A stretch of DNA of 63,503 nt, the filler included, from Candidatus Woesearchaeota archaeon (GTDB taxonomy: Archaea; Nanobdellota; Nanobdellia; Woesearchaeales; J072), in NCBI GenBank assembly GCA_003695265.1. It is 4 parts of 4 records of this genome, joined end to end, with 100 filler letters (N's around TTAATTAATTAA, not from the genome) between each part and the next. Parts side by side here need not be neighbours in the genome. Positions count along the whole stretch, not along the records: positions 18,087 to 45,285 come from RFII01000077.1; 3 more parts are not named here. One strand, written 5' to 3'. The position numbers and the translations under genes are program-made. Below, in pieces: positions 14,401 through 38,812 of the stretch. Under the pieces are notes generated by a model. That model was given only the letters and a program-made list of their open reading frames with translations. It searched no databases and was not told the DNA's origin. Each line of letters opens with the position of its first letter. The first letter of the stretch is position 1.

Positions 14401-14477
14401 TTTTACAATGAGACTTGCAGTCTCCTTGAACCTCTCGCATCAATGGTGGGTTCAAAGGGGAAGAACCACTTGTAAAA
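14401..14477. repeat. MITE/REP-like palindromic element, copy 1
   Basis: TTTACAA...TTGTAAA termini; aligns with the reverse complement of 45630-45707. Confidence 0.75.
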
Positions 14478-14545
14478 AATATTTTTTAATTATTACAACA
14501 GTTTTTGCAAACTTATATATAATTGGTATAATTTCCGCAGAGAAC

Positions 14546-18209: not shown

Positions 18210-21200
18210 TTAAGGAGTCCTTTTTTTACAGCAAACATAGTTTTCGTCACAATTTAATTTGTTTTCCTCTGCTTGTGAATTATCTCCTTTAATGAAAACA
18301 TCATACGGGCTTCTGCATGCGCTTAGAGTGCAAACGCCTTGCACGTTTGGCTGTTCGGGATCATTGCATTTTGGCGCGCAGCACGTATTGTATTTTGATG
18401 ATTTGCACAAAAATTCGTCGTCTCTGTCAGGGTTATAGTTGTATTCTTGCACGTTAATCGTGTTGCCAGTGCAGCTTCCTTGAGAGCAATTCCACCCGTT
18501 TTGCGGGCCGCACTTGCACGGCGCTTTTTGGCATCTGGTGCCGCAGCAAACCTCGTCAGAGCTGCAGTCAGCGTCTCTTTCGCACCTGTGGCCTCCCGCC
18601 CTAATGATTATTGGAATATCACCAATCTGTGGTTGGCCCATGTAAGTTATGAAGTCGCTCGGCCTGGAAAGCTCGCAGCTATTGCTATCAACAGGCTTCC
18701 TCCTAAGCTCGTAATGAACAATCCAGGTTTGGTCCTGCTCCTCAGGCTTTTCTATTGAGTCTATGTAAACGTTGTACTTGGCTGCTTTCATGCATTGAGG
18801 GTCAAAGTCAATGCCTGTTAGCTCAAAAGAGGCATCATTTATGCTGAACGTGCATTTCCCACCTGTACAAGCATCTGCCAGCCTTTTCCTTGGCCCTCCG
18901 TTTATGGAGTATTCGTCTTTTGAAGTTGGGCTGAGCTGGATTCCCAGCTTAGGATCATTCTTATTATCTGCCTCTTTGTCAAAGAACTTGATTTCCGCGT
19001 TTATCGGGTTGTTTCTTGGCTTGACAAGAGTTGCTGGGTTGTGGGTTAGTTTGTATCCCGTGTAGTCTTCTGAGGTTTTAGCCCTGCATTCATTCTTTTC
19101 TTTCATTTCTCTTCCTTCCCACACATACCTTGACTCGAACTCGTCTACTTTGCTCAGCCTAACATTATCAACAAGAGTGAGTGGGTTGTAGAGGTAGCTT
19201 CCGTTAACGCTTATTTCCTCAGTGAATCCTTGCCTTTCATCAACTTTTATGCCTGCGTTGTTCCTTACCTCCACGTACAAGCACACGTTCTCATTGCTTG
19301 GCTGCTTGTAAACGTTGTAAACAAACTTTATGTCATCCCCTTCGTAGTAGGTTTGCTCGCGCGTCGGCTCTATAGGAGCGCCTCCGACGAAGTGCGCTGA
19401 CGTTGCTCCAAGCCACGGAGCTCCTTCACCGCAGCTTATGTAGCCTCCTGTGGGGTCGAAAGTGCAGTCTATGAAATCATACAATGTTCTGTCCTTTATT
19501 GGGAAATAAAAGATGCCGACATTCCCTTCTAAGTGCTCTTCGCTGAAGCAGTCCTCTGCTGACTGCAGTGGCCCGTACTGGCTTCTTCCGCCGAGCTTTG
19601 GGTAAACCACCACTTTGTAATGATCGAACCTTCTCTGTGAGGGCACCACTTTAGAAGCGCCGCCATTAGCAGGGGTTCCCTGCTTTATGCTCCTGTCGCT
19701 GGTGTAGAATAATTGCTGGTAGCTTCCTGACCCCAAGTCGAGGCAGTCGCAGCCTCTCGTGTTGAAAGGGTCGTTTGCTGCAAGCCAGCTGCAGTCTATT
19801 CCGTTGTCGTAGTACTTTGCTTCTTCTTCTGCTGTGACGCATGACAAATAAATGTCGAAGTGGTCTATGTCGCATCCGGGCATTATCCACCAGCCAGCCC
19901 TGTACTCATAAGTCGTGCTTCCGTCAACAGGGTTTATGTTTGTTAGCCTCCTGTTGCTTTCTATCATGTTGAACCCTGTCTCGTAATTAAGCTGGTAGGC
20001 AGTGTCTGCCAGGCCCTTCCAATTCAGGTCCCAGTCACTGAACAATGCTCCTAAGCAGATTTTTCTTGCAACGTTTTCCTCGCTCAATCCGAGGAAATCG
20101 CTTAGCACCGCGTTGTTGTAATCCTCTCCTATTTCCTGTCCTAATTCGTTTACGCCGTCAAACACCGCGCTGAACCCAGTCCTGACAGCAGCTATTACTT
20201 TGTTTTCCTCGTTTTCCGTGTCTGGCCCGCGGAAAACGTCTGATGACTTGCAGCTTCCCTTAACCATGGAGATTAGGTTGTACATTGAGTCGCACACGTA
20301 CTGTGTCATTAGCTCTTTGCACAATCCAGCGTCTGCGTCCCCTCTAACTTTAACTTCTTGCAAGCAGCCTTCCATCGCAGCAAGAAAATTCTTCCAGTAC
20401 TCGATCCTCTTGTACACTAAGCCTACTGCGCCGCACTGCATTGAAAGCCAGAAGCTGTCTTTCGGATCAAGCATTAATGTCTCGTTTTCTTTTCCGAACA
20501 GCTGCCAGAACAAATGATTAGTGCCGAAGCACGCGGGCGCGTCCCTTCCAGCGTAGTACCTGTAAGGGTTGTACAGGTAAGGTCCTGTGCCTGTTTCGCG
20601 CCACCCAGTTATTTCGCCGTTTTGAATGTGAGGCCTTAGCTTCCAGTAGCGGTAATCCCACTCAACATTATCATCTGAGTTTGCTTTATAGTCATAGTAT
20701 GCTGAGTTGTCGTATTCTGAGCTCTTGTCGCTTATGCAGCAGCACTCAACGCTGTCACCAGGATTTTCTTTAGGATCAAAGCATTTTTTGTTTCCTTCAA
20801 CACCAGGTGTTCCATCAAGGCTCGTGTAGCCTGCAGGAACCCTTATTTTTTCTTCGCCAAAACCTGTGCATTCGCTGCTCTTCATGCACTCTCCTCTCTC
20901 ATATTCTATCGGCGAGATTCTCGTGCAGTACTCGTTGCAGCTGAAAGGCCTCGGCGCTAAAAACCTGTCATCAGTACTTCCTGGTAAGACTGCCAAGCAT
21001 TTTGGGGGATTTGTTGGTAAGCTTGACTGCGGCTCATAGCCCTTGTCAACCCTCCAAAGCCACACAATGCCTTTATCAGAGTCAGAACTGGGGCATTTGT
21101 CTTGCGGAGCAACAACGTAGCTCCCTATCTCCTCAACCCCTCTCCTGCTTTGTTTTGTGTATCGCCAGCAGCCCCTCCTGCTGTCAAAGCCTTCTTGCTT

Positions 21201-23573
21201 GGCAGCATCGTTGAATTCCTCGCAACTAGGAAACTTAACAAGGTAATACCCTTTCTCATCCACATCACACTCTTTTTTGTACTGCTTTATGAGTGCCTGG
21301 TCGATTTCTGAATTTGTTTTTTGCTGCGTCCATCTTGACGGCGCGTTATGGCCGAACAATCTGTCACATGTGAACCTGTATGCTGTGTAGAGCTTGCCTT
21401 CTGCCTTCCACGCTGAGGAGCAGCCGCCGTAGCATTTCTCAAGGCATTCATTGCTTAACCTGTTGGGGTCTGGCTTGTTTTTTGAAAGCTCAGCCTGATC
21501 ATTAGCGCTTGAGCATTCTTGAGTGTTTTTGCACTGGTCTTCTGGCGGCGGCCCTGTCCATTTAGCCCAGCCGCACCTGAACCTCCTATAAATAGAGAAA
21601 GCAAGCCTGGCCAGTATTCCTATGCCGCACGCCTTTGAAGTGTATTCTATTAATGGCTGAATTGTGTCCATCAGTTTCTGCAGGTTCTCTTTCTGCTTGC
21701 TTATGAATTCCAGGCCCTCATTGAAAACCCAGCCCGGCAGCTCGCTCGGGTTGAACCTTGCGCTGTCTAAAGTATAAGTAACTTCTGTGCATATGTTTTG
21801 GGTTCCTGTTTTTCTGTGGCCTGCAACGTCCTCGTACTCGTAAGTAACCCTGACTTCCAGCGGAAAGGTTATTTCGTTTGACACCGCTTCTAAGTATGAC
21901 TTAAGATTATCACTGTCCAAGAATTCGCTAAGGTCTCTTAAAGGCCTGAGGTTTGGCCATTGAACCCACCAAATCCTGCCCTGGTCGTCAAGCATTTGCG
22001 CCCTGCCAGCTGTTGTCATTAGCTGGCAGCTCAGGTTGTATCGGTCTCCCTTAAAGTAGCGGTTGCATATCGGTGTTACTTGGACTCCTTTAATAACCTC
22101 ATAATTGTAAGATGTCATAGGCGTGAACTCAAGATATATTGAAAGGCTTTCAGTGCCGTCCTCAATCCTCTCAACGCTTAATGGGTTTGGGGTTTGGTAT
22201 TCTATTAGGTTTCGCACGTTCCAGTGGTACTCGCCTGAGCCGCACGGCGATACTGTGTAGCTGAAAGAGGCTGGCTCTCCTTTCAGGCCGTACTCGTCCC
22301 AAGCAGTTAAAGTTATTGGAATGCTTTTTGTAATCTGGTCGAATTCAGTGCTTTCTTCTCCAGCAGTCACTTCTCTCGGCCATGAGCCTCCATAAGCTAA
22401 GGTGAGGTCAACATCCTTAAACTCGAAATCGCCGTTCTCGTCGGCTGTGACTGTCTCATTGTAAGGCTCTGAAGCTCCTCCAACTCCGATCTGCCTTCCA
22501 GACTGGTTTCTCAGGAAGAACAGGTTTACCCTGGCGTTGGGCTCTGTCTTCCCCTTTATGTCAATATTATCAGCTTGGTCCTCTGAAATCACAGCCCTGT
22601 CAGGTGGTATTATGCTGCTGTGGTTTATTTCCGCGCCGTGCTTGTCAACGATTGTTGAGTTTGTTATGGAAACGCTGTTCCCTGCCAGGTCAAACCCAGT
22701 CACTGTTATTGTGTAAGAATTGTCTTCTTCGCCGAGCCTTACAGTGTCCTCGAAACTGCCCGTCACATTAGTTATTGTTCTGTTGTAGCCGCTGCTCGCC
22801 TCTATTTTTATCATACCGGGCAAATAAGCGTCGCTCAAAGTCCCGGTGAGGTTGAATTCTGACGAGTTAATAATTACTTTGGGGATTTCGCTTATGCTCA
22901 GCACTGGCTCTTCAAAGTCAACTCTTATGTTAAACGTTGTTTCATTCTCATTATTGGAGCTGTCCTTGGAGTAAATCCTCACTTGGTTCACGGTTTGGTC
23001 AAGCTCAATTCTGGGAAAGTTGAAAGTGCCTGAGCTTCCTGTCTGCTCAGCAGTTGACCTCGCCTTGACAATCCCGTTAACGTAAACTATCACTAGTGAG
23101 TTCGGCTCTGTCCTCCCGAAAATTCTTATTTTGTCATCATTAGCGTAGTAATAGTTGTTGTAGAAGTTCGCGGAAACGTTAAAGTCAATAAAAGGAGGCT
23201 GGGTGTCATCACTAACAGGAGTAAAATTGTACTGTGGTGTCACATAACAAGTGTCGTTTGGCAGGCAGGAGCTCAGCTGGTAAAAGTATTCCTGCCCTGT
23301 TATTAGAGGGCTTATGCTAATCGAATGCTCAGTAACAAGCGAGCTGTTTCCGGCTGTGCTGTCTAAGGCTCCAATACCATAGCTTACTGATGAGTTTGAT
23401 GCTTCGTCTGTTTCCCAATTAATCGTTGCGGAGCTTCCTGAAAAAGAAATATTGTTATCAGGACTGTGGGTTATGCTCAGCGCGTAGGCTGTTTCAACGC
23501 TAAGGAAGACTAAAAGGGTTATTAAAGCTAATGCAATGCTTTGCCTCACCTTCTTTTTCATAACATTACTCAT
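18210..23573 (-). CDS. Giant (1787 aa) secreted protein with FN3/Ig-like N-terminus and Cys-rich modules
   Basis: Signal peptide ending AYA; ATINWETDEASNSSVSYG (FN3-like); two G(R/K)TEPN Ig-like repeats; many Cys and N-x-S/T sequons. Confidence 0.85.
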   Translation of the reverse strand: MSNVMKKKVRQSIALALITLLVFLSVETAYALSITHSPDNNISFSGSSATINWETDEASNSSVSYGIGALDSTAGNSSLVTEHSISISPLITGQEYFYQLSSCLPNDTCYVTPQYNFTPVSDDTQPPFIDFNVSANFYNNYYYANDDKIRIFGRTEPNSLVIVYVNGIVKARSTAEQTGSSGTFNFPRIELDQTVNQVRIYSKDSSNNENETTFNIRVDFEEPVLSISEIPKVIINSSEFNLTGTLSDAYLPGMIKIEASSGYNRTITNVTGSFEDTVRLGEEDNSYTITVTGFDLAGNSVSITNSTIVDKHGAEINHSSIIPPDRAVISEDQADNIDIKGKTEPNARVNLFFLRNQSGRQIGVGGASEPYNETVTADENGDFEFKDVDLTLAYGGSWPREVTAGEESTEFDQITKSIPITLTAWDEYGLKGEPASFSYTVSPCGSGEYHWNVRNLIEYQTPNPLSVERIEDGTESLSIYLEFTPMTSYNYEVIKGVQVTPICNRYFKGDRYNLSCQLMTTAGRAQMLDDQGRIWWVQWPNLRPLRDLSEFLDSDNLKSYLEAVSNEITFPLEVRVTYEYEDVAGHRKTGTQNICTEVTYTLDSARFNPSELPGWVFNEGLEFISKQKENLQKLMDTIQPLIEYTSKACGIGILARLAFSIYRRFRCGWAKWTGPPPEDQCKNTQECSSANDQAELSKNKPDPNRLSNECLEKCYGGCSSAWKAEGKLYTAYRFTCDRLFGHNAPSRWTQQKTNSEIDQALIKQYKKECDVDEKGYYLVKFPSCEEFNDAAKQEGFDSRRGCWRYTKQSRRGVEEIGSYVVAPQDKCPSSDSDKGIVWLWRVDKGYEPQSSLPTNPPKCLAVLPGSTDDRFLAPRPFSCNEYCTRISPIEYERGECMKSSECTGFGEEKIRVPAGYTSLDGTPGVEGNKKCFDPKENPGDSVECCCISDKSSEYDNSAYYDYKANSDDNVEWDYRYWKLRPHIQNGEITGWRETGTGPYLYNPYRYYAGRDAPACFGTNHLFWQLFGKENETLMLDPKDSFWLSMQCGAVGLVYKRIEYWKNFLAAMEGCLQEVKVRGDADAGLCKELMTQYVCDSMYNLISMVKGSCKSSDVFRGPDTENEENKVIAAVRTGFSAVFDGVNELGQEIGEDYNNAVLSDFLGLSEENVARKICLGALFSDWDLNWKGLADTAYQLNYETGFNMIESNRRLTNINPVDGSTTYEYRAGWWIMPGCDIDHFDIYLSCVTAEEEAKYYDNGIDCSWLAANDPFNTRGCDCLDLGSGSYQQLFYTSDRSIKQGTPANGGASKVVPSQRRFDHYKVVVYPKLGGRSQYGPLQSAEDCFSEEHLEGNVGIFYFPIKDRTLYDFIDCTFDPTGGYISCGEGAPWLGATSAHFVGGAPIEPTREQTYYEGDDIKFVYNVYKQPSNENVCLYVEVRNNAGIKVDERQGFTEEISVNGSYLYNPLTLVDNVRLSKVDEFESRYVWEGREMKEKNECRAKTSEDYTGYKLTHNPATLVKPRNNPINAEIKFFDKEADNKNDPKLGIQLSPTSKDEYSINGGPRKRLADACTGGKCTFSINDASFELTGIDFDPQCMKAAKYNVYIDSIEKPEEQDQTWIVHYELRRKPVDSNSCELSRPSDFITYMGQPQIGDIPIIIRAGGHRCERDADCSSDEVCCGTRCQKAPCKCGPQNGWNCSQGSCTGNTINVQEYNYNPDRDDEFLCKSSKYNTCCAPKCNDPEQPNVQGVCTLSACRSPYDVFIKGDNSQAEENKLNCDENYVCCKKRTP

Positions 23574-23595
23574 TTTTTATTGTTGTTTAAATATT

Positions 23596-25461
23596 TTATG
23601 TGAGCTCGGGCGCTGAAACGTTAAGCGAATAAGATGGGAGTCCTGAGAAGAACAAAAACTGCTCTTCCTCTGAGCCCTCAAAGCCAACGACGTGGAAGGT
23701 TATCTTGTCAGAGTTCTCTAAATCAGGCCATGGGACATTCCACTGCCTTGAAAGGCCTCCTGTGAGTGTTTCGTTCTCAAAAACGTAGATTGTGAGGTTG
23801 TAAGTGAAGTCATCATCTGCCAGAAGCGTTAGCGGGAAGTCTGAGCTGTTCGGCAGTATTGAGAAGGTGTCATAAGAGTTGTCCGCAGCCACTATTTGTA
23901 TCAGCGCTGTCTCGTTCTCGCTGAGCTCTTCTGTTCTTGACACGTCATTAATGTCATGCTTTATTATCTCAATGTCCTTTATCCTTTTTATTGGGGTGAG
24001 CATTAGGTCGTAAGTGTTGTCCATGTTTGAGTTTATGAACATCTCCTTTTCCAAGTATCCATCGGCCTTCCCCCTTACGATTCCCCTTATGCAGTACGGG
24101 AATTTTTTTGCGAGAGCGTATGCTCCGCCGTGCCAGTCGCTTTGGCCCATTTCGCATGTGTAAGGGCCGCACGTGAAGCTTATGTTTACGTCATCAACGT
24201 ACTCGCCTGTCCTCTCATTGACAGTGTAAATTATTAGGCCGTTTCTCACGTCATTGCAGTATTCCTCGTTCGTAACAGTGTCTGCTGCTTCGAAAACGCT
24301 TCTTCCCAGGTTTTGCCTGTCCGGCCTGTTGTGGTTTATTGAAACCTTGAAAGCAAAATTGAATGAGTAAGCCTCGTGCTCGTCTGTCTTTGAGTCTGTT
24401 ATTGTGACTCTGACAGGGTACTCTATGTCATAAGTGAAGTGCCACAGGCTAACACAAACCCATTTTAGAAGGTCTTGGCCTGGAAGCGTGTTTGACTTCA
24501 ATAACAAGCCGTTGCTCGGCCTAGCGTAGAGGTCGAAAGGCCAGTCCATTTGGTGCTGGAAAGCAACTCTGAAGTCATACTGCGAGTCCGTAAAGTTGAG
24601 GTAGAAGTGGTTTTTCATGTAATCTGTGTCCTGACCTGCTATTTCGTCAGGAATCGGCGTGTACTTAGTGCCTGCAACTTTCACGTATGGCAGGTTATAA
24701 TGCATTAATCTTTGAAGCTCTTTCTTAACGTCAAGCATGTTCCACTCCTTTCCGCCACAATCAATGTCATAACCCATTAAGGGTATTCTGTCCTCGTCCA
24801 AGCCCACAAAGTCCATTGTTCTTTTCTCAAAAAACGCGTAGGAGTTCTCTGCTTCCATTATTTTTGTGGCGAGCTCGTACATTTTCTTTAGCCTTACATT
24901 AACAACTCCATGGAAGTCCTCAACCACGATTGATTTCAGGCCCTGCTTGTTTCTGAACTCGAGCGGGTAATGAACATTAACCACCACGTTCTCATTCGCT
25001 ATGGTTGTTTGCGCGCTTATGTTGCCCAGCTCCACAACGTAGTACTGGCCTTTGAAAGCTGTGAGGTTTTCCAGGCAGGATGGCATTGTTTCCTCAACAA
25101 AGATGCTTATGTCGCGCTGCATTCTCTCAATGCTTGGAGTCTGGTTCACGCCCTCGTAAAACCAGTAGGGCATTTTCATCAAGCCGTTAGGAGCAATCGA
25201 CAAGTAGCTTAGAGGATTCTGCTCTATTCGCTGCGGAAAGTAGATGAAGCCTGACTGCATTCCAAGCCTAGTCACTGCCTCAAAAGCCTTTTCCTCAGCG
25301 CAACTCTCAACATAGCCTATCATTGGCTGGAGCTCGGCAGGGATTATCTGCTCTGGCTTGAAGTACTGGCTCTCGTTCCTCACGTAAACAACAATGAATA
25401 AAGATATTAAAAGGATTATTCCGATGATTATAAAAGCTGTTATCTGCGCTTTTCTTCCCAT
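23596..25461 (-). CDS. Large pilin-like protein with class III signal peptide (621 aa)
   Basis: MGRKA|QITAFIIIGIILL; YVESC...LGMQSGFI and PYW motifs shared with 26168..28459. Confidence 0.82.
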   Translation of the reverse strand: MGRKAQITAFIIIGIILLISLFIVVYVRNESQYFKPEQIIPAELQPMIGYVESCAEEKAFEAVTRLGMQSGFIYFPQRIEQNPLSYLSIAPNGLMKMPYWFYEGVNQTPSIERMQRDISIFVEETMPSCLENLTAFKGQYYVVELGNISAQTTIANENVVVNVHYPLEFRNKQGLKSIVVEDFHGVVNVRLKKMYELATKIMEAENSYAFFEKRTMDFVGLDEDRIPLMGYDIDCGGKEWNMLDVKKELQRLMHYNLPYVKVAGTKYTPIPDEIAGQDTDYMKNHFYLNFTDSQYDFRVAFQHQMDWPFDLYARPSNGLLLKSNTLPGQDLLKWVCVSLWHFTYDIEYPVRVTITDSKTDEHEAYSFNFAFKVSINHNRPDRQNLGRSVFEAADTVTNEEYCNDVRNGLIIYTVNERTGEYVDDVNISFTCGPYTCEMGQSDWHGGAYALAKKFPYCIRGIVRGKADGYLEKEMFINSNMDNTYDLMLTPIKRIKDIEIIKHDINDVSRTEELSENETALIQIVAADNSYDTFSILPNSSDFPLTLLADDDFTYNLTIYVFENETLTGGLSRQWNVPWPDLENSDKITFHVVGFEGSEEEQFLFFSGLPSYSLNVSAPELT

Positions 25462-26171
25462 CTCATAATCCTCCTTGTAGTATTATAAAAGTAGAACCTG
25501 AACCACACACTGTATAGAAAGAATAAAAGCATTGTGGCGTAAGAGCCGTTGTAAAGCCCGTCTAAGTAATTGCCGAGCATGCCAATGAGTGTTAGTATTA
25601 TTATTGCGAAAGCAAAAGGGATAATATAATATACTAGTTTTGTTGCTCCGATTTTAAAGCTTTGCCACACCGCTTTTATTGAGTCAGTCCTCGCGAGCAA
25701 GACTGACATCACATTAGTAAAGTACACGAGAATAATAAACAATGTAAGCATAGCTCCTGTGCTTATGTCAGTTATTAGGGAAAGAAGGTAAATCAGCACA
25801 GCCCATAAGATTATCCAGGAAAGGCTTGCAAGGAAGAAAGCGTAAAATGTTTTTGCAGAGTATTTTTTGTGTGTGATTATCTTCCAAACCTTGGCCTTGA
25901 AAAAAGCTACTGCTGCCAGAAAGATTATTAAGGCTAAGAACACGTAAGCCACGACAACAGAGGCTGCTTTTTGCAGGCTCATTGTCTGAATGTCAGCCTC
26001 TGAGAAAATGCTTTGCAGGCCTAAGTTCATGATGCTCAGCACTAAGAACGAGAAAATGTAGAACGCGATGTCAAGCAACGCTGCAATGCCGTAATCCTTG
26101 TTAATCCTTCTGAAAGAGCTGTAAAGCCCTTCTATTTCCCTTATTACGTAAGATTTTTTTTTCTTTTTCAT
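25440..26171 (-). CDS. Polytopic membrane protein (about 6 TM)
   Basis: Hydrophobic segments throughout; ATGA overlap with the upstream gene. Confidence 0.78.
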   Translation of the reverse strand: MKKKKKSYVIREIEGLYSSFRRINKDYGIAALLDIAFYIFSFLVLSIMNLGLQSIFSEADIQTMSLQKAASVVVAYVFLALIIFLAAVAFFKAKVWKIITHKKYSAKTFYAFFLASLSWIILWAVLIYLLSLITDISTGAMLTLFIILVYFTNVMSVLLARTDSIKAVWQSFKIGATKLVYYIIPFAFAIIILTLIGMLGNYLDGLYNGSYATMLLFFLYSVWFRFYFYNTTRRIMRWEEKRR

Positions 26172-28459
26172 TCGAACATCGGCTTTAACAATTCATTGTT
26201 TTGCTCTGAGTACTCCTGCAGGTTTTTCATATTAAGCATTTCATCCCAGCTGCTCGGCACTCCAAAGTCGAAAACGTACAGTGTCATGTTTTGTTTGCCT
26301 GAGTAAAGGTCTGACTTATAAATTGTTATGTTTGCCAGGCCTCCTCCTGAAGGCCATCCTGTTTGGTTGAGCTCAGGGTACTCTGTTGTCTGGTGGTCAA
26401 CGCAAACGCCCAATATCTTTGTAACGCAGTCCTCGCGGGTTTCAGCAGGAATGTACACTTCGCCATTGTAGTAAAGGTAAGCAACGTACCTGTAAGTTCC
26501 AGGCACGAGGTTGAACGAATAATTTTCCAATGGTATTGTTATGTTCTCATGAGACATTTTATCAAGGTTATTGATCATTTCCTCGTATTCCCCTCTGGTA
26601 ATGCTTCCGTTAGCGTACATTTCATCATAAGCCTGCCTTTGAGCTTCGTAATCAACGTTTATGGGACTTTCTTCTGTCTGGTACCAGATGAAGCTTATCA
26701 GCGGCACGTCTGTCTCGTCAGGATCCTCTTTCACGCGCTGCATCGTAATAGAAACTTTGTCAAGCTCGCCAAGCTCAGTAGCTGCTTCTTTTTTCATCCT
26801 GTAATACTCTGCAGGGCTTGAAGGGTACGGGTCAGGGTAAAGCACTTGGCTTACTAAGTCCTCAGTCCTTTTCTTTACTTTAATATTTATTTCCTTGAAA
26901 GGCCAGAGCTCAAAAGTGAAGCTTTCAGGAGGGCCCTCTTCTAAGTTGTTGAAAAGGATTGGCTTGCTGAAGTAGCCTTGCTTCTCAGCTATTATTTTGC
27001 CGCCGAAAGCGCAGTAAGGGAAATTCGCAGTTAATGCTGCTTGTCCTCCGCTGAGCTCTGTTTCTCCTATGAACACGCGCTGCCCGCACCTGTAGTATAT
27101 CCTTACTCCCACGAGCTCTGAGTCGTCAAGCGCGTTTATTGTCCTCACAGTAATTGACTTGTTTATTAGCTGTCCCGGGTCGTTAATGCTGATAGGAGAA
27201 ACATATGCTGTAACATTGCTCAAGGCTTCTGCCCTTACAGGCTCGTTGTTGATTATGTTGGCTTCTAAAGCAACGTAAAACTCTAAGCCGCGGTTGTTGA
27301 AAGCGTAAGGGTCGTAAAGCCTCATGATAACAGGGAATGAAACGTCGTACTTTACGCGCTCGTCTTTCAGTGACAGGCCGATGAACCTTGTTATGAAGTT
27401 TGAGGGTATTATGTCTGGAGGAATGTAAACTTCTGAGTCTCCAATGCTTACATGTATTGGGGTGTCGGGAGGGTAAAAGAAGCTTACTGCATAGGGGTGT
27501 TGCTTGTCATCATCAGGCATTCTGACAAGCATCATCTTGTATATTCCACTTCTCAAAGGATCTGAGAAACTGTTGGAAAGGCTTGGGTCGTTGTTCAGGG
27601 CGTTCGTGATTTTTACAATCCTTAACAGGTCAAGAATCTCATCCCTTATTATTTGCTCAACAACGTGCCTGACGTAGATGTGGATGTTGTCTCCTAATGT
27701 TAATCCGCTCATCTCAGGAAGGTCAGAGCCTGCTCCAGCGTACAGCACTATTAAGTCCTTTACAATGTTCTCTATGAAAGTGCTCTCACGCTCAAAATTG
27801 ATTATTTCTGTTGCGAAATCCCACAAGCCTTTCAGGTTGACGTCAGCATTCCTAACGAACTTTGAGACTGAGTAAGTTGTTGGGGAGCCTTTCACATTCA
27901 CTTGTAAAGGGTAGTTAACCTTGAACACCACGTTGTTTTTTGTTATCTTAACATCTGTTTTTACTACGCCTTCGCTCACCTCGAACTGCTCAAAGTCAGA
28001 AAAGCCGCGCGTGCACGCCTTTAAGTTCGCGTTCATGTAGTGCTCGAGCTGTGACTCAACAGAGTTGTCGCCGTCAGAGACTTTCTTGAGGCTAGGCCTG
28101 TTGGACCTCACAACAAAATTGTTGTCCACGTAATGCCAGTACGGCAGGTACTGCGGCTCATAAATCAAGACGTCTGAATCAACCGCGAAAGGAGATATTT
28201 CAAGGTCTGAGGGAATGTCCACTGGGTTGATGTAGCCGCCGCCCATTCCGAGCTGCTGTATTGCCTCATACGCAACAGAGTCAATGCACTTGTCAACAAA
28301 CTCCTTTACCGGCTGGATTTCGTAAGGCACTTCCTCTCCTTTTTCAACGCCGGGCTTTAAGCTGCCTATGTTGCCTCTTATGAAAAGGATTACTGCTGTT
28401 GAGAATACTAAGACTATGCCTATTATCAAAAACAGTGTTATCTGACCTCTTTTTTTCAT
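26168..28459 (-). CDS. Large pilin-like protein with class III signal peptide (763 aa)
   Basis: MKKRG|QITLFLIIGIVLV; FVDKC...LGMGGGYI, PYW, YDVSFPV and FPYC..G motifs; paralog of 23596..25461. Confidence 0.82.
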   Translation of the reverse strand: MKKRGQITLFLIIGIVLVFSTAVILFIRGNIGSLKPGVEKGEEVPYEIQPVKEFVDKCIDSVAYEAIQQLGMGGGYINPVDIPSDLEISPFAVDSDVLIYEPQYLPYWHYVDNNFVVRSNRPSLKKVSDGDNSVESQLEHYMNANLKACTRGFSDFEQFEVSEGVVKTDVKITKNNVVFKVNYPLQVNVKGSPTTYSVSKFVRNADVNLKGLWDFATEIINFERESTFIENIVKDLIVLYAGAGSDLPEMSGLTLGDNIHIYVRHVVEQIIRDEILDLLRIVKITNALNNDPSLSNSFSDPLRSGIYKMMLVRMPDDDKQHPYAVSFFYPPDTPIHVSIGDSEVYIPPDIIPSNFITRFIGLSLKDERVKYDVSFPVIMRLYDPYAFNNRGLEFYVALEANIINNEPVRAEALSNVTAYVSPISINDPGQLINKSITVRTINALDDSELVGVRIYYRCGQRVFIGETELSGGQAALTANFPYCAFGGKIIAEKQGYFSKPILFNNLEEGPPESFTFELWPFKEINIKVKKRTEDLVSQVLYPDPYPSSPAEYYRMKKEAATELGELDKVSITMQRVKEDPDETDVPLISFIWYQTEESPINVDYEAQRQAYDEMYANGSITRGEYEEMINNLDKMSHENITIPLENYSFNLVPGTYRYVAYLYYNGEVYIPAETREDCVTKILGVCVDHQTTEYPELNQTGWPSGGGLANITIYKSDLYSGKQNMTLYVFDFGVPSSWDEMLNMKNLQEYSEQNNELLKPMFE

Positions 28460-28464
28460 TTTGA

Positions 28465-29718
28465 TTATTCTGGCCTTACTCCTCCAGTATCCTCATTCAG
28501 ATTGTGTTCTCCGTCATCATTAGTGTCGCCGCTCGGGCCGGTCGGCTGGCTTGTGACTGCTTCTCCCCTCCTGTTCCAAGTGTCTGTTGCCAAGTCACGG
28601 CAGTAGTCGTTGTAGCCGTAAATTTTTTCCTTGAACGTTAAGCAGATAGTAGTATAATTTCTCTGGCTGAAAAAGCTTCTCACAGTGTCGTAGCCGTCGT
28701 TCACTTCTCCTAGGCCTATGCTTATCCATTCCTTGCTGGGATCAGCTGGTATTGCAGTGTATTCGCCGCCATCATATTTCAGCTTTATCTTGTAATGAGC
28801 TACTGGCTCCTTGTCTTCTTCTAAGCTGTTAAGGTATGATGTTTCAAAAGCGTCTCTTTCAAGGTTTCCCACCATCCATTGTATTGTGTAGAGGAAATGA
28901 GTGTCATTGTACAAGACTCTTTCGCCTCCTACCCAGCCGCAAACAGTTCCTTGGCCGCAGTAAACAGCGCTCTGAGCAGCGTGCTCCGGATGCAGAGGAG
29001 TGTTTTTTCTTGGGTTGCACCAGCTCTCCTCCAAGTAATCCCAAGGGTCCTGCACTAAGTCGCCTAAAACGCTTTCGCGCCACCACTCCCCGATTCTTTC
29101 GCCCCAGCCAGTATAACGCCATATCATGTCAAAAGCAACTGTGAAGATGTTGTCTTCTCCCCCGCAGTCCTCATCCCACCAAATATAACATCCTTGTGGG
29201 CAAATCCCATCATCGTCATTGCCGCACTCGCCCCAAAGCCTGACCTCGTCTGCTGGAACGCATTCCTTGTCATTGCAAACGCAGTTTTCAATTTTCCTTT
29301 CCACTTGTTTTCCATCTTCCTCAACAGTTTCTGTACCGCAATTCTTGCATTTGATACCATTGCAAATATCACCTGCTTTGCACTCTTTCTGTCCTGGTTT
29401 TTCCTTACACTTACCAACACGCTCTGATTCCTCCTTGCATTTTTCTTTTTCATCAGGCTTGAAGGCCTTGGTAAGAGTGTCTTTATTACAATACCAACCT
29501 TCATCCGCGAGCTTCCCAAAACAATTACACTTATCATTTACTGTATCCTCACAAGTATTAGAAGGATTGCATTCTTCATAATCATCAACGGTTGGAGTCA
29601 AGCCCAACGTCTCCATTTCATCAGCAGTCAGCTGGATTGTGAGAGTGTCAGCAAAAGATATTCCAATTAATATTAAGAAAATCATTGCCGTTATTCCAAG
29701 TATTATTTTTCGTTTCAT
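28465..29718 (-). CDS. Secreted Cys-rich protein
   Basis: MKRKIILG...SFA signal peptide; DDGICPQGC....DEDC motif; start set by ATGA overlap. Confidence 0.8.
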   Translation of the reverse strand: MKRKIILGITAMIFLILIGISFADTLTIQLTADEMETLGLTPTVDDYEECNPSNTCEDTVNDKCNCFGKLADEGWYCNKDTLTKAFKPDEKEKCKEESERVGKCKEKPGQKECKAGDICNGIKCKNCGTETVEEDGKQVERKIENCVCNDKECVPADEVRLWGECGNDDDGICPQGCYIWWDEDCGGEDNIFTVAFDMIWRYTGWGERIGEWWRESVLGDLVQDPWDYLEESWCNPRKNTPLHPEHAAQSAVYCGQGTVCGWVGGERVLYNDTHFLYTIQWMVGNLERDAFETSYLNSLEEDKEPVAHYKIKLKYDGGEYTAIPADPSKEWISIGLGEVNDGYDTVRSFFSQRNYTTICLTFKEKIYGYNDYCRDLATDTWNRRGEAVTSQPTGPSGDTNDDGEHNLNEDTGGVRPE

Positions 29719-31601
29719 TCGCAATCACTCATTCTGTGTTTAACGGTTTTGTCAACAGCTTTTGAATGATCATCCTTGTTCCACAAATAAACCTTGACTG
29801 TGTATTCTTCTCCTCCATTCAATCCTTCTATTCTTGCTCCCCTCCCTTTTCCATCGATTTCGATTTCGCCTTCTATTCCAGGATACCTGCTTAAGTCAAG
29901 GGTTAAAACGCCGCACTCAAAGCCAGGCTCACGAGCGCAGCATGCATCCTCATCATCTAAGCACTTATCCCTGTTTGCTAAGTCGCATTGTTTTTGCGGG
30001 CCGCAATCCTTATGATATTCCCAATTATTATTACATTTTTTTATTTTATTGTCTTCGCACATATACTGGCCGTTGGTGCATGGTTGCGCGTCACACGGCT
30101 TATCAGGGGGGTATCTTTTGTTAAAGCAGCAGTTTCCAGTTTTCCACACTTGGAACTTATTATTTTCTCCTTTGCACAGGCAAGCAGACGTTATTGGGCC
30201 TTGGTCACACACAGGATAAGTGTCGCATCGCTCATCTAAATGCACGTATTCACCACCAATTTTGCAACACCAGCCATTCCTGGCATCATTGCAATTCGAA
30301 CAAGGATTACTGTCAGTGCATTCAACCGAGTCATGGTTCTGGTTTTGAGACTCCTCTTCCGGCTTGCAGCACTTATTAATATTGTCTTGGCAAGCATCAT
30401 CTCCCGAACAAACTTGTCCTTGAGCACAATAGCCACTTTGCTCAACCCATACCCAATTATTATTCTTCTCACATTTTTTTACTTTATTATCCTCACAAAT
30501 ATACTTATTTCTCATGCTTTCATCACACGTTACAGTGCCGGCGTTTTGATTATTGCTCTGTTGAGAGCAGCAAACCTTGCCTGAATCTGTGCAGTAAAAG
30601 CCCGACATCACATTGCTGTCATCACAATCAGAAGATGCCTTGCATGTTGCTTCTGCTGAGTTGCCTTGGCCGCATTCTTTGCTCGTGTCGCAGCACCACT
30701 TATCACTTAAGCTGCCGTAGCAGTATCCAGGATTGCAGTAAGGTGCGTTATTGCATTCTGTTGTTGATGAAATGCCGCAGTCAGAGCACCTCCAATCAGT
30801 GCCGTATTGTTCTGAGCACGTTTTTTCTTTCTTGCAGCATTTTTTATTGTCAGCACAGTCTGCATAACGCGTGTCAATTCCTCCTTGAGCGTCGCAGCCG
30901 TTATCACCAGAGGTTTTAGCGCATTGGTTTTGAGGGCATTCAGGTTTACATTGCTCTTGAGTTTTATCATTCTTTCTTAAAGCTTTATAAGATGAATCAG
31001 AGATTATATTTTGGTCATTCCAAGCGTTCTTACAATCTTCAGCAGAGGTACAAACCCCTTTACAAGTACATTCAGCAACAACACAAACATTTTTATCAGA
31101 ATCCCAGTACTGTGGCTTAGCCTCACAACTTCCTTTTTCACATGCAGAAAGACCATCACAGTAATTCCTATCAACATTAACCCATCCGTCACCTAAGACG
31201 TCAATACAGTATTGGTTGGTTTCAAGAAGCTTCCATTTGCATTCACCTATGTTTTGCATGTTTTCATATTTGCAACAGCAACTGTACTTCCAAAGAGGGT
31301 CGTCTGGAAGTGGTTCATAACAATCATAACCATTCTGCCTTTCATCACATTTTTTGTTTCCAGAACATTCTTTTAAGAGTTTCCAATAAGATCCTCTTGC
31401 CACAAAGTCTAATACTTTCGTTCTGTCATTTGTGCAAGCTTCCTGCCAAGGCCAAGCCCAAGCATCATGTTGATTTAATTCAGCGCACCTAACACTAGGA
31501 TCCCATGGACACTTCCAGTGACCACTACGCCCTTCCTCTGCAAAGGCAATACTAATTAAGAATAAAATTCCAACAATTAACATTAACATTATTTTTCTCA
31601 T
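29715..31601 (-). CDS. Secreted, extremely Cys-rich repeat protein
   Basis: MRKIMLMLIVG...AFA signal peptide; repeated CEDNK(V/I)KKC..N.W and CC modules; start set by ATGA overlap. Confidence 0.82.
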   Translation of the reverse strand: MRKIMLMLIVGILFLISIAFAEEGRSGHWKCPWDPSVRCAELNQHDAWAWPWQEACTNDRTKVLDFVARGSYWKLLKECSGNKKCDERQNGYDCYEPLPDDPLWKYSCCCKYENMQNIGECKWKLLETNQYCIDVLGDGWVNVDRNYCDGLSACEKGSCEAKPQYWDSDKNVCVVAECTCKGVCTSAEDCKNAWNDQNIISDSSYKALRKNDKTQEQCKPECPQNQCAKTSGDNGCDAQGGIDTRYADCADNKKCCKKEKTCSEQYGTDWRCSDCGISSTTECNNAPYCNPGYCYGSLSDKWCCDTSKECGQGNSAEATCKASSDCDDSNVMSGFYCTDSGKVCCSQQSNNQNAGTVTCDESMRNKYICEDNKVKKCEKNNNWVWVEQSGYCAQGQVCSGDDACQDNINKCCKPEEESQNQNHDSVECTDSNPCSNCNDARNGWCCKIGGEYVHLDERCDTYPVCDQGPITSACLCKGENNKFQVWKTGNCCFNKRYPPDKPCDAQPCTNGQYMCEDNKIKKCNNNWEYHKDCGPQKQCDLANRDKCLDDEDACCAREPGFECGVLTLDLSRYPGIEGEIEIDGKGRGARIEGLNGGEEYTVKVYLWNKDDHSKAVDKTVKHRMSDCE

Positions 31602-34600
31602 TCTTCGCATTCTCCTGTTGCGTAGTTCCATTTGTCTTCTGGGCACATCGCGTCTTCGCAGATGTCTTCCATTTCTGAGGGCAGGTTAAAGTTTAGTTGC
31701 TGGTGCACGCTCGCAACAGCGCCTATCTTGTTGTTCACGTCCATTATTCCGCGTATGGTGTTGGCCATGTCGCAGGCTGCTTTTTGCCAGTCTGAAAGTT
31801 CAGCCCTGCCTTTGCTGTCGCAAGTGAACCAGCTTTGCAGCAGTGCTTTTGCAAGCCTTGGTATTCCTGTTTCAGGAAGTGATATTATGCTTTGCTGAAT
31901 CCCCCTGATAAGCCTTGTGAAACCTAGGAAGTCAAAGGCTTCTCCTAGCACTGTTGTGCACATGTACATTGCTCTGGCGTCTGCGCACATTCCAATGTCG
32001 CCTCCGTTGCTAACTGCTTTCCTCATGCAGTTTATGTATTCGCATTGGATGTAGCGGTACTTCTGCATGTTGTAGATTATTCCTGGAAGGCACGCGGTTG
32101 CGACTGCTGCTGGCAGATTATTCTTCGGGTCTAGTGACGTCGGGCTCATATAGCCATAGCTCTGCAGGCCCCTTATCACGCCAGTGTCTCTTAAGCCTGG
32201 TATTGCTGTGATGTCGCCGCCTATCATGTCAATGTAGCGCTGCCACGGCACAACATAACTGCAGCTCGCGTAATCGCAGTAGTTCCTTAGGCTTGCGTAA
32301 GTGCTTGCCTGCGACAACGTTTTTTTGTCGAGCTTGAAGGTTGGCGGCTGGCTCGGAGCAGATCCTTCCTTGCACCTGTCATAAGCTCCGGATTTCTTCC
32401 AGTAGTCGTACTGGCCGTACCAGAACGGGTAAATAAGATATTTTCCCAGGAATTCGTAAGGGTAGCATCCCACTTGGAAAACCGCTTCTCCAGCTCCTTC
32501 ATTAATGTGTTTTATGAAGCTGCCAAGCGCCTCGAGTGATGAGAACGCCTGCCAGAAGTGAACGACGCTTCTTGCGTTGTTGCAGAAGCCCTCAAACTTT
32601 TTCAGCGCATTGTTTGCTTCTCCAATCCACTCCCAGTCCGCCATTCCGCTTTCCTGCGCTTTCTTTATTTTTTCTTTTATTTTTTCGTCCGGAGGCGCGT
32701 TAAGCCTGCTTCCCCTAAGCTTGACTGGAAAAGTAAAATTGTCAATCTCGGCTTCTGGGTAAACGTTTGAGCCGAGCATTTCGTAAGTCCTTAGCTCGCA
32801 CGTAACATTAAACTTAAACTTGTCTGAGGGCACTTCAGGCCTTAATGGTTTGAGTGCGAAGTCAGCCCTGTTCTCGTCTGACAAGTTCATCCTCGGCCTG
32901 ACAAGCCTGGGATAATTCTCGCTGAAGAAGTAATCTTCATAAATGCTTTCATCCCCTCCTATGCTGCAGTCATCTAATTCCATGTTAAGCACTTTCACGT
33001 TTGGGTTTCCTGTAAGCTTGAACGGAACTGAGTAAGCATATTCGTCAACCAAGGTTAATGTCAGCCTGCTGACTCCATTCTTAGGCCGGATCTCATCCTC
33101 AAGAATATCAACACCAATAAGGTCTTGGCCTGTCTCGTTTAACACGCCGAAGACTTCTTTTTGGATTGTGATGTTTGCTGTGTTGTTTGAAAAGTCGCTC
33201 ACCTCAAAGTACAAGTCAGCAGTCCTGTGGCCTCCCATCACAGTGTCTGTCGGGCTTATCGTGCAAGTGTATAATTCTCCGCTCGCAACAGCGCAGTCAA
33301 CTACGTCATTCTCATGCCCTATGCTGTAAAGCTCTGACAGGTTTGCCCTGGCTTCTCTTATGCCCCAGCCGGGCTCTGTCACGTTGAACGTTATTGTTAT
33401 TACGTCGCCGCCTTTTATTTCTGAGAGGCCGTCCTGGTTTATTATGGAAAAGCTGTCAGCATCGATTATTGGAGCAGCGTCATCAAAGTACAGCATGTAA
33501 TGAGTTTCTCCTGTAACCGCATTTCCAACATCATCTCTTGAAGGGTAAACTATTGAGACGAAGGGAGTGCTGGGCCCTTGAATGTTCACGTTAACTGGCA
33601 CTGTGCATTCCCATGATGGCTCTGCTCCCTCACACCTAAAGACGCGCCTTGCTGTCGTGTAGCTAGGGTTGAGCTCGTTAAGCATTAACCATATTAGATT
33701 ATTATTAAAGCCGGCTCCTGTGTCTGTTAAGACAACTTTCAGGTTCTGCTGCCCTCTTCTCAGATAAAAGTTGCCGTCATTGTCGTAAAGCTCTGTTTCA
33801 ATAGAATTAACAACAGGCGCATCATTGTCCTCAATTAGTGTTGCGCTCACAGCCCTTGTCGTGTTGTGGCCGAACTCATCAAAAGCAGTGACTGTTATCT
33901 CAGCAGTGGTGCTTGACAGCAGCAAGTCTATTTCTCTCCAGGAGCATTCCCAATTGTTGCCTGAGGTTTTCTCGCAGCTAACCCTTCCAGGACTGCCTTT
34001 CTCCCATGAAGTGCTCCTATACTCAGGCTTCTGAGGGTTTAAGCCTGAGATGTCTGCCTCGACTTTCTGCAGGTTTGCGTCAGTTATGGTTACGAAAGCG
34101 TCAACATGGCTTATCGTCCTGTCGCTTCCAGAAGTTGAAACATACCTTACTGGATTGCCGTTCTTCATTAAGGCAAGCGTTCCGCTTATGCTCGGGCTTA
34201 CAGAATCAACAGTGACTGTGCCTAAGCTTTCCATCCTTTCGTTTCCCGTGTTGTCTCTTGCTGTGTAGCTGAATTCTAAGACGCCGTCCTCTGCAGCGTC
34301 TATTGTTTCTGTTATTGTGTGCGTGCAGTCTCCGGGCCACGCGTTAATAACAACTGTTTTGTCAACACTTCCAAGATGGAAAACAATTTCCTTCGTGCCT
34401 GAGCAGCCGTACCCTGTTGCGGAGATTGTGTCCTCAACCACTGCTTCTATCTCAAGAGTCCTGTCATTAGTATTAATTGAGTTTATGCTGACAGTGGGCG
34501 CTACTCCGTCAACCTTTATGCCTGCTTCCACAACAGGCCCTACTGGCTGGTCTCCCTCATATTTTTGCAGCTTGTAAGGTGGAGTTTTTGGGCCTGCTGG

Positions 34601-34867
34601 AAGATTATTAGGCCCAATGTCCATGCTGCAGTAATAAAGGCTTAGGCCTTGTATTGGCGTGCAGTTGAAGAACCTGAATTCATCGCCCAGAATCCTGATG
34701 TTCTCCGAGTCTGTTGTTATGTTTATGAATGTGTGGTCTGACATTCTCCTATAACCATCAACGCCATCCTGGCCTGAAATGTGGTTCACGCTGATCAGCG
34801 CAAAAGCAGTGTTTGACATTAGTAAAATTATTATAATTGCCAATGCCTGTCTTATTGCTCGTTTCAT
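31598..34867 (-). CDS. Large secreted protein (about 1089 aa) with Ig-like repeats and Cys-rich helical C-terminus
   Basis: MKRAIRQ...AFA signal peptide; D..AP / D..GN beta-sandwich boundary motifs; start at 34867 by ATGA overlap rather than 35014. Confidence 0.85.
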   Translation of the reverse strand: MKRAIRQALAIIIILLMSNTAFALISVNHISGQDGVDGYRRMSDHTFINITTDSENIRILGDEFRFFNCTPIQGLSLYYCSMDIGPNNLPAGPKTPPYKLQKYEGDQPVGPVVEAGIKVDGVAPTVSINSINTNDRTLEIEAVVEDTISATGYGCSGTKEIVFHLGSVDKTVVINAWPGDCTHTITETIDAAEDGVLEFSYTARDNTGNERMESLGTVTVDSVSPSISGTLALMKNGNPVRYVSTSGSDRTISHVDAFVTITDANLQKVEADISGLNPQKPEYRSTSWEKGSPGRVSCEKTSGNNWECSWREIDLLLSSTTAEITVTAFDEFGHNTTRAVSATLIEDNDAPVVNSIETELYDNDGNFYLRRGQQNLKVVLTDTGAGFNNNLIWLMLNELNPSYTTARRVFRCEGAEPSWECTVPVNVNIQGPSTPFVSIVYPSRDDVGNAVTGETHYMLYFDDAAPIIDADSFSIINQDGLSEIKGGDVITITFNVTEPGWGIREARANLSELYSIGHENDVVDCAVASGELYTCTISPTDTVMGGHRTADLYFEVSDFSNNTANITIQKEVFGVLNETGQDLIGVDILEDEIRPKNGVSRLTLTLVDEYAYSVPFKLTGNPNVKVLNMELDDCSIGGDESIYEDYFFSENYPRLVRPRMNLSDENRADFALKPLRPEVPSDKFKFNVTCELRTYEMLGSNVYPEAEIDNFTFPVKLRGSRLNAPPDEKIKEKIKKAQESGMADWEWIGEANNALKKFEGFCNNARSVVHFWQAFSSLEALGSFIKHINEGAGEAVFQVGCYPYEFLGKYLIYPFWYGQYDYWKKSGAYDRCKEGSAPSQPPTFKLDKKTLSQASTYASLRNYCDYASCSYVVPWQRYIDMIGGDITAIPGLRDTGVIRGLQSYGYMSPTSLDPKNNLPAAVATACLPGIIYNMQKYRYIQCEYINCMRKAVSNGGDIGMCADARAMYMCTTVLGEAFDFLGFTRLIRGIQQSIISLPETGIPRLAKALLQSWFTCDSKGRAELSDWQKAACDMANTIRGIMDVNNKIGAVASVHQQLNFNLPSEMEDICEDAMCPEDKWNYATGECEE

Positions 34868-35670
34868 TGTGTCATTGATTGGTAGCACGTGAATTTGTAA
34901 AAGTCCGAGTTTATGCTCCTGCAAGCTTGATACCTGTCTGAAACGTCGAATTCCGGGTTGTTCGCCATGATTAGGTAGCAGACGTCTTTTTCCTGGCCTT
35001 TTTTCTCGCTGCATTTCTGCTGCGCCTCTTCTAAGTAGCTTCCTTTCAGCTCTGCTATTGTTGCTTTGCTCAGCCTGATTGTCTTGTTGTAAAAATTAAG
35101 GCCTAACCCCACCAAGACAAGGAAAACGCACGCCCAGATTAGTATTAGGGAATAAAGGAATGCCAAGTCTTTTTTCTGCACCGGCTTCTTGTGGTAAGAC
35201 CTCACAACAAAGTAGTCTCTCTCACTGAACAAGTACCAGAGTATTAGGCCGTTCACGACAAGGGTTATGAAAAATGACAGCAAGCTTATGTTCCTTAGGA
35301 CAGAAAAGCTGTTTCCTTCATGCAGGAAGAGTGATAAGAAAGCATTTAAGATGCCGAACCCAAACCATACAACGCTAACTTCAAAAGCCCATTCCTTCCT
35401 GTTCAGGTAGCCGTACACCAGAAAAGCTAATAGCACGGCTATTGCGAAGTTAAACGCAGAGGCGTCTGCTCCTCTTATTATTTTTCCGAGAACATATGTT
35501 GTTGGCGTTGAAATTCCTAATATGAAGTAAAGCATGAAGAACAAGAAAAGTATTATTAAGTAGCCAGAGAGAACCCTTATTCCTAAAGGGATTGTGTAAT
35601 CCTTGTGAAAGGGGATTATTTTTCTGGGATGCCTTTTTTTATTTTTTTGACTAACACCCCTCTTTTTCAT
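34864..35670 (-). CDS. Membrane protein (about 5 TM) with C-terminal Cys motif; first gene of the surface-protein operon
   Basis: Hydrophobic helices followed by C...KDVCY...C..I.....KFTCY. Confidence 0.78.
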   Translation of the reverse strand: MKKRGVSQKNKKRHPRKIIPFHKDYTIPLGIRVLSGYLIILFLFFMLYFILGISTPTTYVLGKIIRGADASAFNFAIAVLLAFLVYGYLNRKEWAFEVSVVWFGFGILNAFLSLFLHEGNSFSVLRNISLLSFFITLVVNGLILWYLFSERDYFVVRSYHKKPVQKKDLAFLYSLILIWACVFLVLVGLGLNFYNKTIRLSKATIAELKGSYLEEAQQKCSEKKGQEKDVCYLIMANNPEFDVSDRYQACRSINSDFYKFTCYQSMTQ

Positions 35671-37918: not shown

Positions 37919-38812
37919 TTAGAGTGACTTCATAACATAGTATTCGTCATCGTCCTCAGAATTAATAGTTATCAGCAGAGTGGATGATGACTTTGACACT
38001 TTTTTCCTCAGCTCGCGCAGAAAGTCGATTATTTCCTCTTTTGAGTTTGATGAGATTAGTTCGTGAAGCCCGTCTAACAACAGGACGCCGTTTTTCGCAA
38101 CTCCAAGAAAATTGTCTACTGAGTCGCCCAACAGTTTAAGGTCTTTGGGGTTTATTGTGTTCCAAGCCTTTATGTTTGTCAGCCACAGAAAGGGAGTTCT
38201 CTTAAGATCGTACTTTGCCCTTATCTTGTCGGGGTTTTCTGTTGTGATTATGAGGCCCTCTTTTCCTGAAGTGACGTGTTCTACTAAAACGTCATAGGAC
38301 TTTTTCACTCCTTCGATAAAGTAAGTGAACCCTAGCTTTAAGTCGTGCTTTCTTTTTGGCTTTGCAAACCTGTCAATTCCGTCAACAATGCATTGCTCGC
38401 TCATGTTGCCTATTAGGTCTGTCTGGCTTAGGACGCCGTACAGCTTGTCATCCTCCTTTATGACAACTCTTCTTATGTTGTTCTCAACCAGCAAGTCTAT
38501 AACCTCAAAAACAGGCGTTGTTGTCTGCACGGTGATTATTGGAGAGCTCATTATGTCCTCAACTTTCGTGTGCTCAGGGTCTTTGCCTACTGAAACAATT
38601 TTTTTGACGAAGTCCCTTTCTGTGACTATGCCTACAGGCTCTTCGTTCTCAGTAACAACAATTGCTCCCATGTTTTTTTCTGCCATTAGCCTAGCAGCTT
38701 CTTGGACTGTTTTGCCTTTAGAAATCTTTAGGACGCCCGGCTTTATAATGTCTCTGACTATTATAGGGGATTCGCTTTCTGCCCTTATGCTTAATTCCTT
38801 CAAAGCATTCAC
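37919..38812 (-). CDS. CBS-pair protein with C-terminal DUF835-like domain
   Basis: GIVTERDF and IMSSPIITV CBS motifs; FLWLT...VLLLDGLHELIS C-terminus. Confidence 0.8.
   Translation of the reverse strand: MNALKELSIRAESESPIIVRDIIKPGVLKISKGKTVQEAARLMAEKNMGAIVVTENEEPVGIVTERDFVKKIVSVGKDPEHTKVEDIMSSPIITVQTTTPVFEVIDLLVENNIRRVVIKEDDKLYGVLSQTDLIGNMSEQCIVDGIDRFAKPKRKHDLKLGFTYFIEGVKKSYDVLVEHVTSGKEGLIITTENPDKIRAKYDLKRTPFLWLTNIKAWNTINPKDLKLLGDSVDNFLGVAKNGVLLLDGLHELISSNSKEEIIDFLRELRKKVSKSSSTLLITINSEDDDEYYVMKSL

Follow-up and report, generated by a model that had tools for sequence, protein, structure and literature searches.

Layout of the operon

The stretch of DNA analysed here (the window; 63,503 nucleotides) comes from the genome of a Candidatus Woesearchaeota archaeon (GCA_003695265.1; 1.06 Mb, 94.6% complete) and consists of four contigs (C26, C27, C28 and C30) joined by N spacers. 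The minus strand of C28 carries an operon of eight genes, lettered A to H in transcription order (Table 1), that encodes two giant exported proteins (B and H), two proteins with class III-like leaders (E and G), two multi-pass membrane proteins (A and F) and two further exported proteins (C and D). Judged from sequence, the operon is a duplicated two-gene module, E-B and G-H, an organization that the initial annotation of this DNA overlooked.

With starts placed at ATGA overlaps, an assumption behind all gap and length figures, the spacings from A to H are -4, -4, -4, +5, -4, -22 and +22 bp. The re-called starts bear out the initial annotation of eight co-oriented genes: four neighbouring pairs overlap at ATGA, one pair overlaps by 22 nt, and the two remaining gaps measure 5 and 22 bp. 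Its inventory of products also holds: B, C, D and H, which it had called exported and Cys-rich, each possess a single N-terminal hydrophobic stretch and contain 2.5%, 11.1%, 5.5% and 3.7% Cys, respectively, while A and F, its two polytopic membrane proteins, have five hydrophobic segments each (Kyte-Doolittle hydropathy >1.5; one of A's is marginal). Pfam and NCBIfam searches of the operon products give Ig-like matches alone, all in H, in line with the earlier statement that no catalytic motif is recognizable. Both here and in many relatives the operon lies directly downstream of a conserved housekeeping anchor, a gene that we take from its sequence to be metG (methionyl-tRNA synthetase). The end of H is 123 bp from the end of C28, and by eye a convergent open reading frame (ORF) stops just behind the H stop codon, so the operon ends at H.

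Table 1. Genes of the operon and its upstream neighbour, in window positions.
Gene	Position	Strand	Product
metG (presumed)	35756-37843	-	methionyl-tRNA synthetase
A	34864-35670	-	268 aa, multi-pass membrane protein; opens the operon directly after metG
B	31598-34867	-	1089-aa exported giant, module 1
C	29715-31601	-	628-aa exported protein, variable slot behind B
D	28465-29718	-	417-aa exported protein, Cys-rich N-half, variable-slot passenger
E	26168-28459	-	763 aa, class III-like leader KRG↓QITLF, G paralogue, usual B partner gene
F	25440-26171	-	243-aa multi-pass membrane protein, conserved third module member
G	23596-25461	-	621 aa, class III-like leader RKA↓QITAF
H	18210-23573	-	1787-aa exported giant, module 2

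A duplicated module and its range

E and G are paralogues, as first annotated (23% identity over 549 columns, E = 8e-29). B and H give no BLAST match to each other; a profile of the C-terminal region of B finds H orthologues at E = 1e-27 to 1e-35, profile-profile comparison aligns the B and H cores over 457 collinear columns (probability 94.8%, E = 4.9e-8), and their Ig stalks likewise match (probability 98%). A single core motif, comprising three near-invariant Cys residues and a Gly, is recovered in 51 of 53 giants, including B, H and the types found in other taxonomic orders. This genome (G000) encodes further paralogues, all at contig ends: a second B paralogue (C101:1-2784, minus strand; 29% over 804 aa), a third member of the E/G family (C46:11190-12464, minus strand) and an F paralogue (C56:2160-2954, minus strand). 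They suggest that a third module copy exists in fragments; overlaps between these three contigs were looked for and none was found. Further giant exported ORFs of G000 do not match the core: C90:10822-19080 (minus strand; 2753 aa with 262 Cys), C86:966-7718 (plus strand; 2251 aa) and C64:6292-12234 (plus strand; 1981 aa).

The initial annotation had called for a synteny survey, and in relatives the homologues proved strictly syntenic rather than scattered. Our G-based loci come from a single-pattern search of species genomes that gave 152 matches, of which the best 80 were used; this set is biased to close relatives of G, and its members are not independent samples. Four of the 80 break off at a contig edge; the remaining 76 all have H right after G, and in 24 of these the spacing is -4. 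Where 9 kb of flank is available, 33 of 34 loci have B upstream; where 2.5 kb is available, 50 of 54 have F upstream of G. Behind H, 44 of 51 loci encode a second F. In the neighbourhoods of B homologues, an E-like gene adjoins B or sits within a few genes of it. The genes most often run in the order metG-E-B-[variable exported protein]-F-G-H-F', of which the window order B-C-D-E-F-G-H is a variant, close to that of locus L158 (B-D-E-G-H-F). This conservation of gene order across relatives rules out a chance arrangement. A G-like gene also adjoins the giant in 20/20 loci chosen by weak core matches (17 from other orders of the class, 3 from the same order).

Across the phylum, a G profile matches 237 of 251 genomes, a count that takes in short paralogues with the N-domain alone, and the core is found in 202 (235 and 200 of 249, respectively, without the unpublished genomes G355 and G356). 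The core is single-copy in all 48 listed genomes of other orders and mostly present twice in this order, where 37 of 41 genomes encode a B homologue; B-type proteins form 1571 clusters (representatives) at 50% identity. Where homologues of G, B and H carry names, they are annotated as hypothetical or FN3-domain proteins and assigned to Candidatus Woesearchaeota, Nanoarchaeota or Nanoarchaeia. The depositor title 'uncultured Methanosarcinales', which stands on many of the 80 G loci, is likely a labelling error since these loci carry the same operon.

C and D are lineage-variable passengers, a point also missed in the initial annotation. C contains 70 Cys in short CC-ending repeats (CC at 108-554) and has no homologue among all ORFs of the fetched loci; D has one there, matching its C-terminal half (E = 6e-9) and occupying the same position in L158. 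Homologues of A are patchy (3 of 22 neighbourhoods, there directly before an E-like gene). No curated family in Pfam or NCBIfam matches A, and no Pfam family matches F. At locus L045 (9608-12631, minus strand), a single ORF of 1007 aa joins an F-like membrane protein to the front of an E/G-like protein; the fusion, possibly a sequencing artefact, hints that F and E/G act together.

Giants, leaders and the closest known systems

B comprises a signal stretch, an Ig-like stalk (residues ~25-570), a beta-sandwich (~610-716) and a conserved Cys-stapled helical bundle (~728-1075). Its predicted model (predicted local distance difference test, pLDDT, 72), which includes a 46-residue helix in the long bundle, has no clear match among solved folds in a fold search, and its sequence gives weak Ig-adhesin matches (E = 0.003-0.007). 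In H, an FN3/Ig stalk (~32-430) is followed by the B-like core (~440-1200), which contains large inserts, then by another conserved region and, at the C-terminus, by a variable tip, which in the window consists of a beta region and three CC-type Cys repeats resembling those of C. The tip is where enzymes appear in relatives. In the 20-locus set, wall-cutting domains are present in 10 of 17 other-order giants (SLT in nine, M15 carboxypeptidase in one, and M23 in one, on an SLT protein) and in 0 of 3 same-order giants; among complete H ORFs of the 80 G loci, 5 of 56 carry them (VanY 4, glucosaminidase 1, SLT 1). The E-S/T and G-x-x-Q motifs, which have a catalytic role in SLT domains, are kept in 10/10 SLT domains. 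A Hint domain and a transglutaminase domain, outside these counts, are also seen in a partly overlapping set of H proteins. One H orthologue, P0122, ends in a Hint-like domain (residues 2211-2286; E = 2e-5, below the cut-off), a sequence match which suggests that tips are released or exchanged by autoproteolysis. Outside the operon, C43:24461-27277 (plus strand; locus L088) of G000 encodes a candidate wall-cutting enzyme: a 939-aa membrane-anchored protein with a predicted M23 peptidase domain (E = 2.5e-14) and TPRs, in which residues ~325-355 hold, by eye, an SLT-like motif (E-S ... G-I-G-Q) unscored by Pfam and our SLT profile.

The enzyme-tipped giant has been published before. Family fam00969 (Castelle 2021, PMC8204110) has a median length of 1947 aa, a signal peptide in 79% and GH23 in 53% of members, and occurs in 81% of the genomes of Pacearchaeota and 59% of those of Woesearchaeota; attachment to bacterial walls was already suggested there and repeated for Woesearchaeota in PMC9723730, as far as the accessible text of both papers goes. 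H very likely belongs to fam00969, a connection absent from the initial annotation and drawn from family statistics rather than from sequence: both are ~2000-aa exported proteins widespread in Pacearchaeota and Woesearchaeota, and GH23 in 53% compares with SLT in 9 of 17 other-order giants. Neither H nor B of the window has GH23, as is true of 47% of published members. The accessible text of PMC8204110 treats fam00969 as one enzyme family and describes neither the partner genes G and F, the duplicate E-B, the enzyme-free core nor the non-SLT tips. Family fam00214, part of the same published module (991 proteins with one transmembrane segment, in 99% and 91% of the two groups, according to the same text), may be the E/G family. 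In the literature we searched, we found neither the gene pairing nor the duplication described, nor any mention of the B paralogue or of the core, and the module around the giant appears to be unpublished.

The starts of E (KRG↓QITLFLIIG) and G (RKA↓QITAFIIIG) have what is expected of class III signal peptides, which the initial annotation had assigned to them: a short basic leader, a [KR][GA] site and a hydrophobic helix (residues 4-33 in the G model); at E 0.1 they match neither the Pfam class III model nor DUF361. Among 114 G rows, 103 contain the motif and 11 do not match it; in the 103, Gln+1 is invariant (the pattern itself required Q), position -1 is G/A/S in 102, basic residues dominate -2 and -3, and position +5 is Phe in 100 and Glu in none. 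Like Methanococcus Epd pilins, the substrates of EppA, these proteins have a short basic leader ending in G/A and Gln+1 (PMC3875500; PMC13705601, accessible text). EppA substrates combine Gln+1 with Glu+5, however, so the Phe+5 of the G orthologues rules out EppA-type (Epd) pilins. This criterion excludes Epd-type membership alone, since Glu+5 is likewise missing from Sulfolobus and Haloferax pilins in the accessible text of PMC3875500. E and G also differ from Epd pilins in their multi-domain bodies of 620-760 aa and in a locus that lacks ATPase, TadC and peptidase genes. Behind the long N-terminal helix, broken at 34-41, G has two alpha/beta domains, a transthyretin/CnaB-like domain (404-492), which fills the PDB fold lists, and a further beta-sandwich; its N-domain runs helix, break, helix, loop, helix and four-strand meander. 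A sequence match of G to a fimbrial protein is weak (E = 0.45).

Filament machinery is encoded elsewhere in the genome. There is one prepilin peptidase gene (Peptidase_A24 on C3, E = 1.9e-15; FlaK-like below the cut-off), secretion ATPase family members lie on C14, C23, C102, C20 and C65, and TadC genes form two pairs on C14 and C23. The paired TadC genes and a QxxxE pilin beside an ATPase on C23 resemble archaeal type IV filament system 1, and QxxxE proteins are encoded on contigs other than that of the operon. No T2SSE or T2SSF/TadC match is present on C26, C27, C28 or C30, which agrees with the initial annotation and leaves the operon locus without the ATPase/TadC platform of an ordered type IV filament locus. 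Scattered pilus genes are normal in Nanobdellati according to the accessible text of PMC13705601, whose main text does not mention Woesearchaeota or Pacearchaeota by name. In two relatives (loci L025, G010:C1:22085-29277, and L056, G029:C14:1-5520), the ~4-10 kb around the E-B pair include QxxxE pilin-like genes and also genes that, by eye, are TadC/ATPase-like.

The gene arrangement itself, a pilin-leader gene without Glu+5 directly before the gene for a large non-pilin exported protein, recalls PilK/PilX/GspK with PilC/PilY1 or MshQ. In the accessible text of 10.64898/2026.02.14.705861, PilK homologues invariably lack Glu+5, adhesin genes follow apical pilin genes, and the pilIJK homologues are immediately followed by the large MshQ gene, an arrangement shared with pilVWXY1. 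Unlike at bacterial type IV pilus tips, we saw no sequence similarity and no PilI/PilJ-like neighbours in the operon, and the C-terminal half of B is modelled as a beta-sandwich plus helical bundle, the bundle being the core, in contrast to the beta-propeller of the PilC/PilY1 adhesin. In comparison with the Tad proteins CpaL/TadG, the TadE/TadG-like structural neighbours of the G N-domain are weak.

Proposed role and alternatives

We propose that the operon carries a lineage-wide module in duplicate (E-B and G-H, with F) and that this module is likely a cell-contact apparatus, a reading to which we give a probability of about 55%. The cell-contact role is based on the peptidoglycan-cleaving domains fused to many H homologues. 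The single prepilin peptidase would process E and G at G↓Q or A↓Q; the mature proteins would then remain in the membrane as anchors or cap a short type IV filament, each holding its giant through the conserved core, with F as a putative membrane scaffold or assembly factor for the pair. Lacking Glu+5, E and G would act as apical subunits in the way PilK/PilX do for PilC/PilY1; we put true incorporation into a pilus tip at about even odds within this reading. The stalk would project the variable tip, which would bind, and in many lineages cut, the wall of a partner that is likely a bacterium. The tips of this genome (the H tail, C and D) would be adhesive rather than enzymatic. The initial annotation had proposed a pilus-tip, adhesion or penetration complex; cell contact finds support here, while entry of E/G into a pilus, assembly of the eight products into one complex and penetration stay hypothetical.

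Several observations weigh against this proposal. H and B of the window have no enzyme domain (by Pfam, and for SLT by a custom profile), no SLT was found in this 94.6%-complete genome, and 51 of 56 complete H ORFs lack a wall-cutting domain at E<=1e-5. SLT occurs in 136 of 251 phylum genomes (G356 included), often in short separate ORFs; the module therefore has no monopoly on wall-cutting, and any case for it as the sole wall-cutting device is weakened. The core was not found in the same-order families f46 (0/6), f52 (0/4), f55 (0/2) and f56 (0/8), where it may be dispensable or diverged beyond detection. The G N-domain scores 0.41-0.48 in template-modelling score against TadE/TadG clusters, equalled by unrelated rows at 0.42-0.46, and the variable C-terminus of H misfits the conserved terminal-strand latch of PilC/PilY1.

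A possible but doubtful alternative is a non-filament envelope scaffold in which E and G are membrane stalks capped by B and H, like SlaB/SlaA or non-filament class III-leader proteins, with enzyme tips as opportunistic add-ons to a structural or generally adhesive job. No component as a whole resolves to an S-layer or enzyme family: operon products match no S-layer family in Pfam or NCBIfam, and the one S-layer match in the fold search, a generic 83-residue domain, is a spacer that carboxypeptidase and sortase-pilin domains match as well or better. Moreover, five different peptidoglycan-enzyme families recur on the giant, although archaea, to our knowledge, lack peptidoglycan. It is very unlikely that the giants instead serve surface-tethered antagonism or scavenging, lysing or grazing bacteria nearby with no stable host relationship. 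Archaea do have peptidoglycan hydrolases able to kill bacteria, and these are prominent in Nanoarchaeota (PMC12352652); a predatory reading has been proposed for Woesearchaeota GH23 proteins (PMC9723730), both per the accessible text; yet what is conserved in the module is an enzyme-free body, kept in duplicate even where, as here, there is no enzyme.

A penetration device, in which two weakly hydrophobic helical hairpins of the core would, once the wall has been cut, insert into the membrane of the target and open a conduit like a translocon or fusogen, seems quite improbable. Across 150 B homologues, these Cys-bounded hairpins have a median best 19-residue hydropathy of 1.34 and 1.39, reaching at least 1.6 in 42/150 and 29/150 (Ig stalk, 0.73, with 12/726 windows); they are frankly membrane-like in some orthologues and sit on the long predicted helical bundle with its 46-residue helix. 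The B hairpins of this genome score only 0.94 and 0.85, however, buried helices of any soluble bundle would score alike, beta-domains are a poor control, and the model is poor for hairpin 1 and for the hairpin 2 loop region (pLDDT ~45-65). Unlikely as well is the boldest form of the contact-apparatus reading, a dedicated archaeon-to-bacterium attack organelle that would combine a type IV filament tip pressing the giant onto a bacterial cell, an exchangeable wall-cutting enzyme and a novel disulfide-stapled helical hairpin that enters the membrane and opens a feeding conduit; if true, it would be a new kind of archaeal invasion machine and would make bacteria the hosts of two abundant uncultured groups.

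We know of no isolate of Woesearchaeota or Pacearchaeota. For the question of how and to whom these archaea attach, a module with a fixed body and a variable tip, found in about four-fifths of phylum genomes, offers concrete handles. Tip enzymes and binding domains, expressed and tried on bacterial walls, could predict hosts; the conserved core could serve as a marker and antibody target for imaging enrichments, and is a structural target without a clear match among solved folds. The two-copy Woesearchaeota form ties ~1,500 unannotated B-type clusters to one published family.

Elsewhere in the window, a gene at the end of C27 (16819-18042, plus strand) encodes a membrane-anchored protein that, with its two thioredoxin-like CxxC domains, might act as a disulfide catalyst for Cys-rich exported proteins; it sits on another contig, so its closeness to the operon in the window is meaningless. 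The remaining neighbours are ordinary: a CBS+DUF835 protein (37919-38812, minus strand), an ATP-cone ribonucleotide reductase (47373-49658, plus strand), a P-type cation ATPase (51091-53769, plus strand) and topoisomerase I (14408-16726, plus strand).
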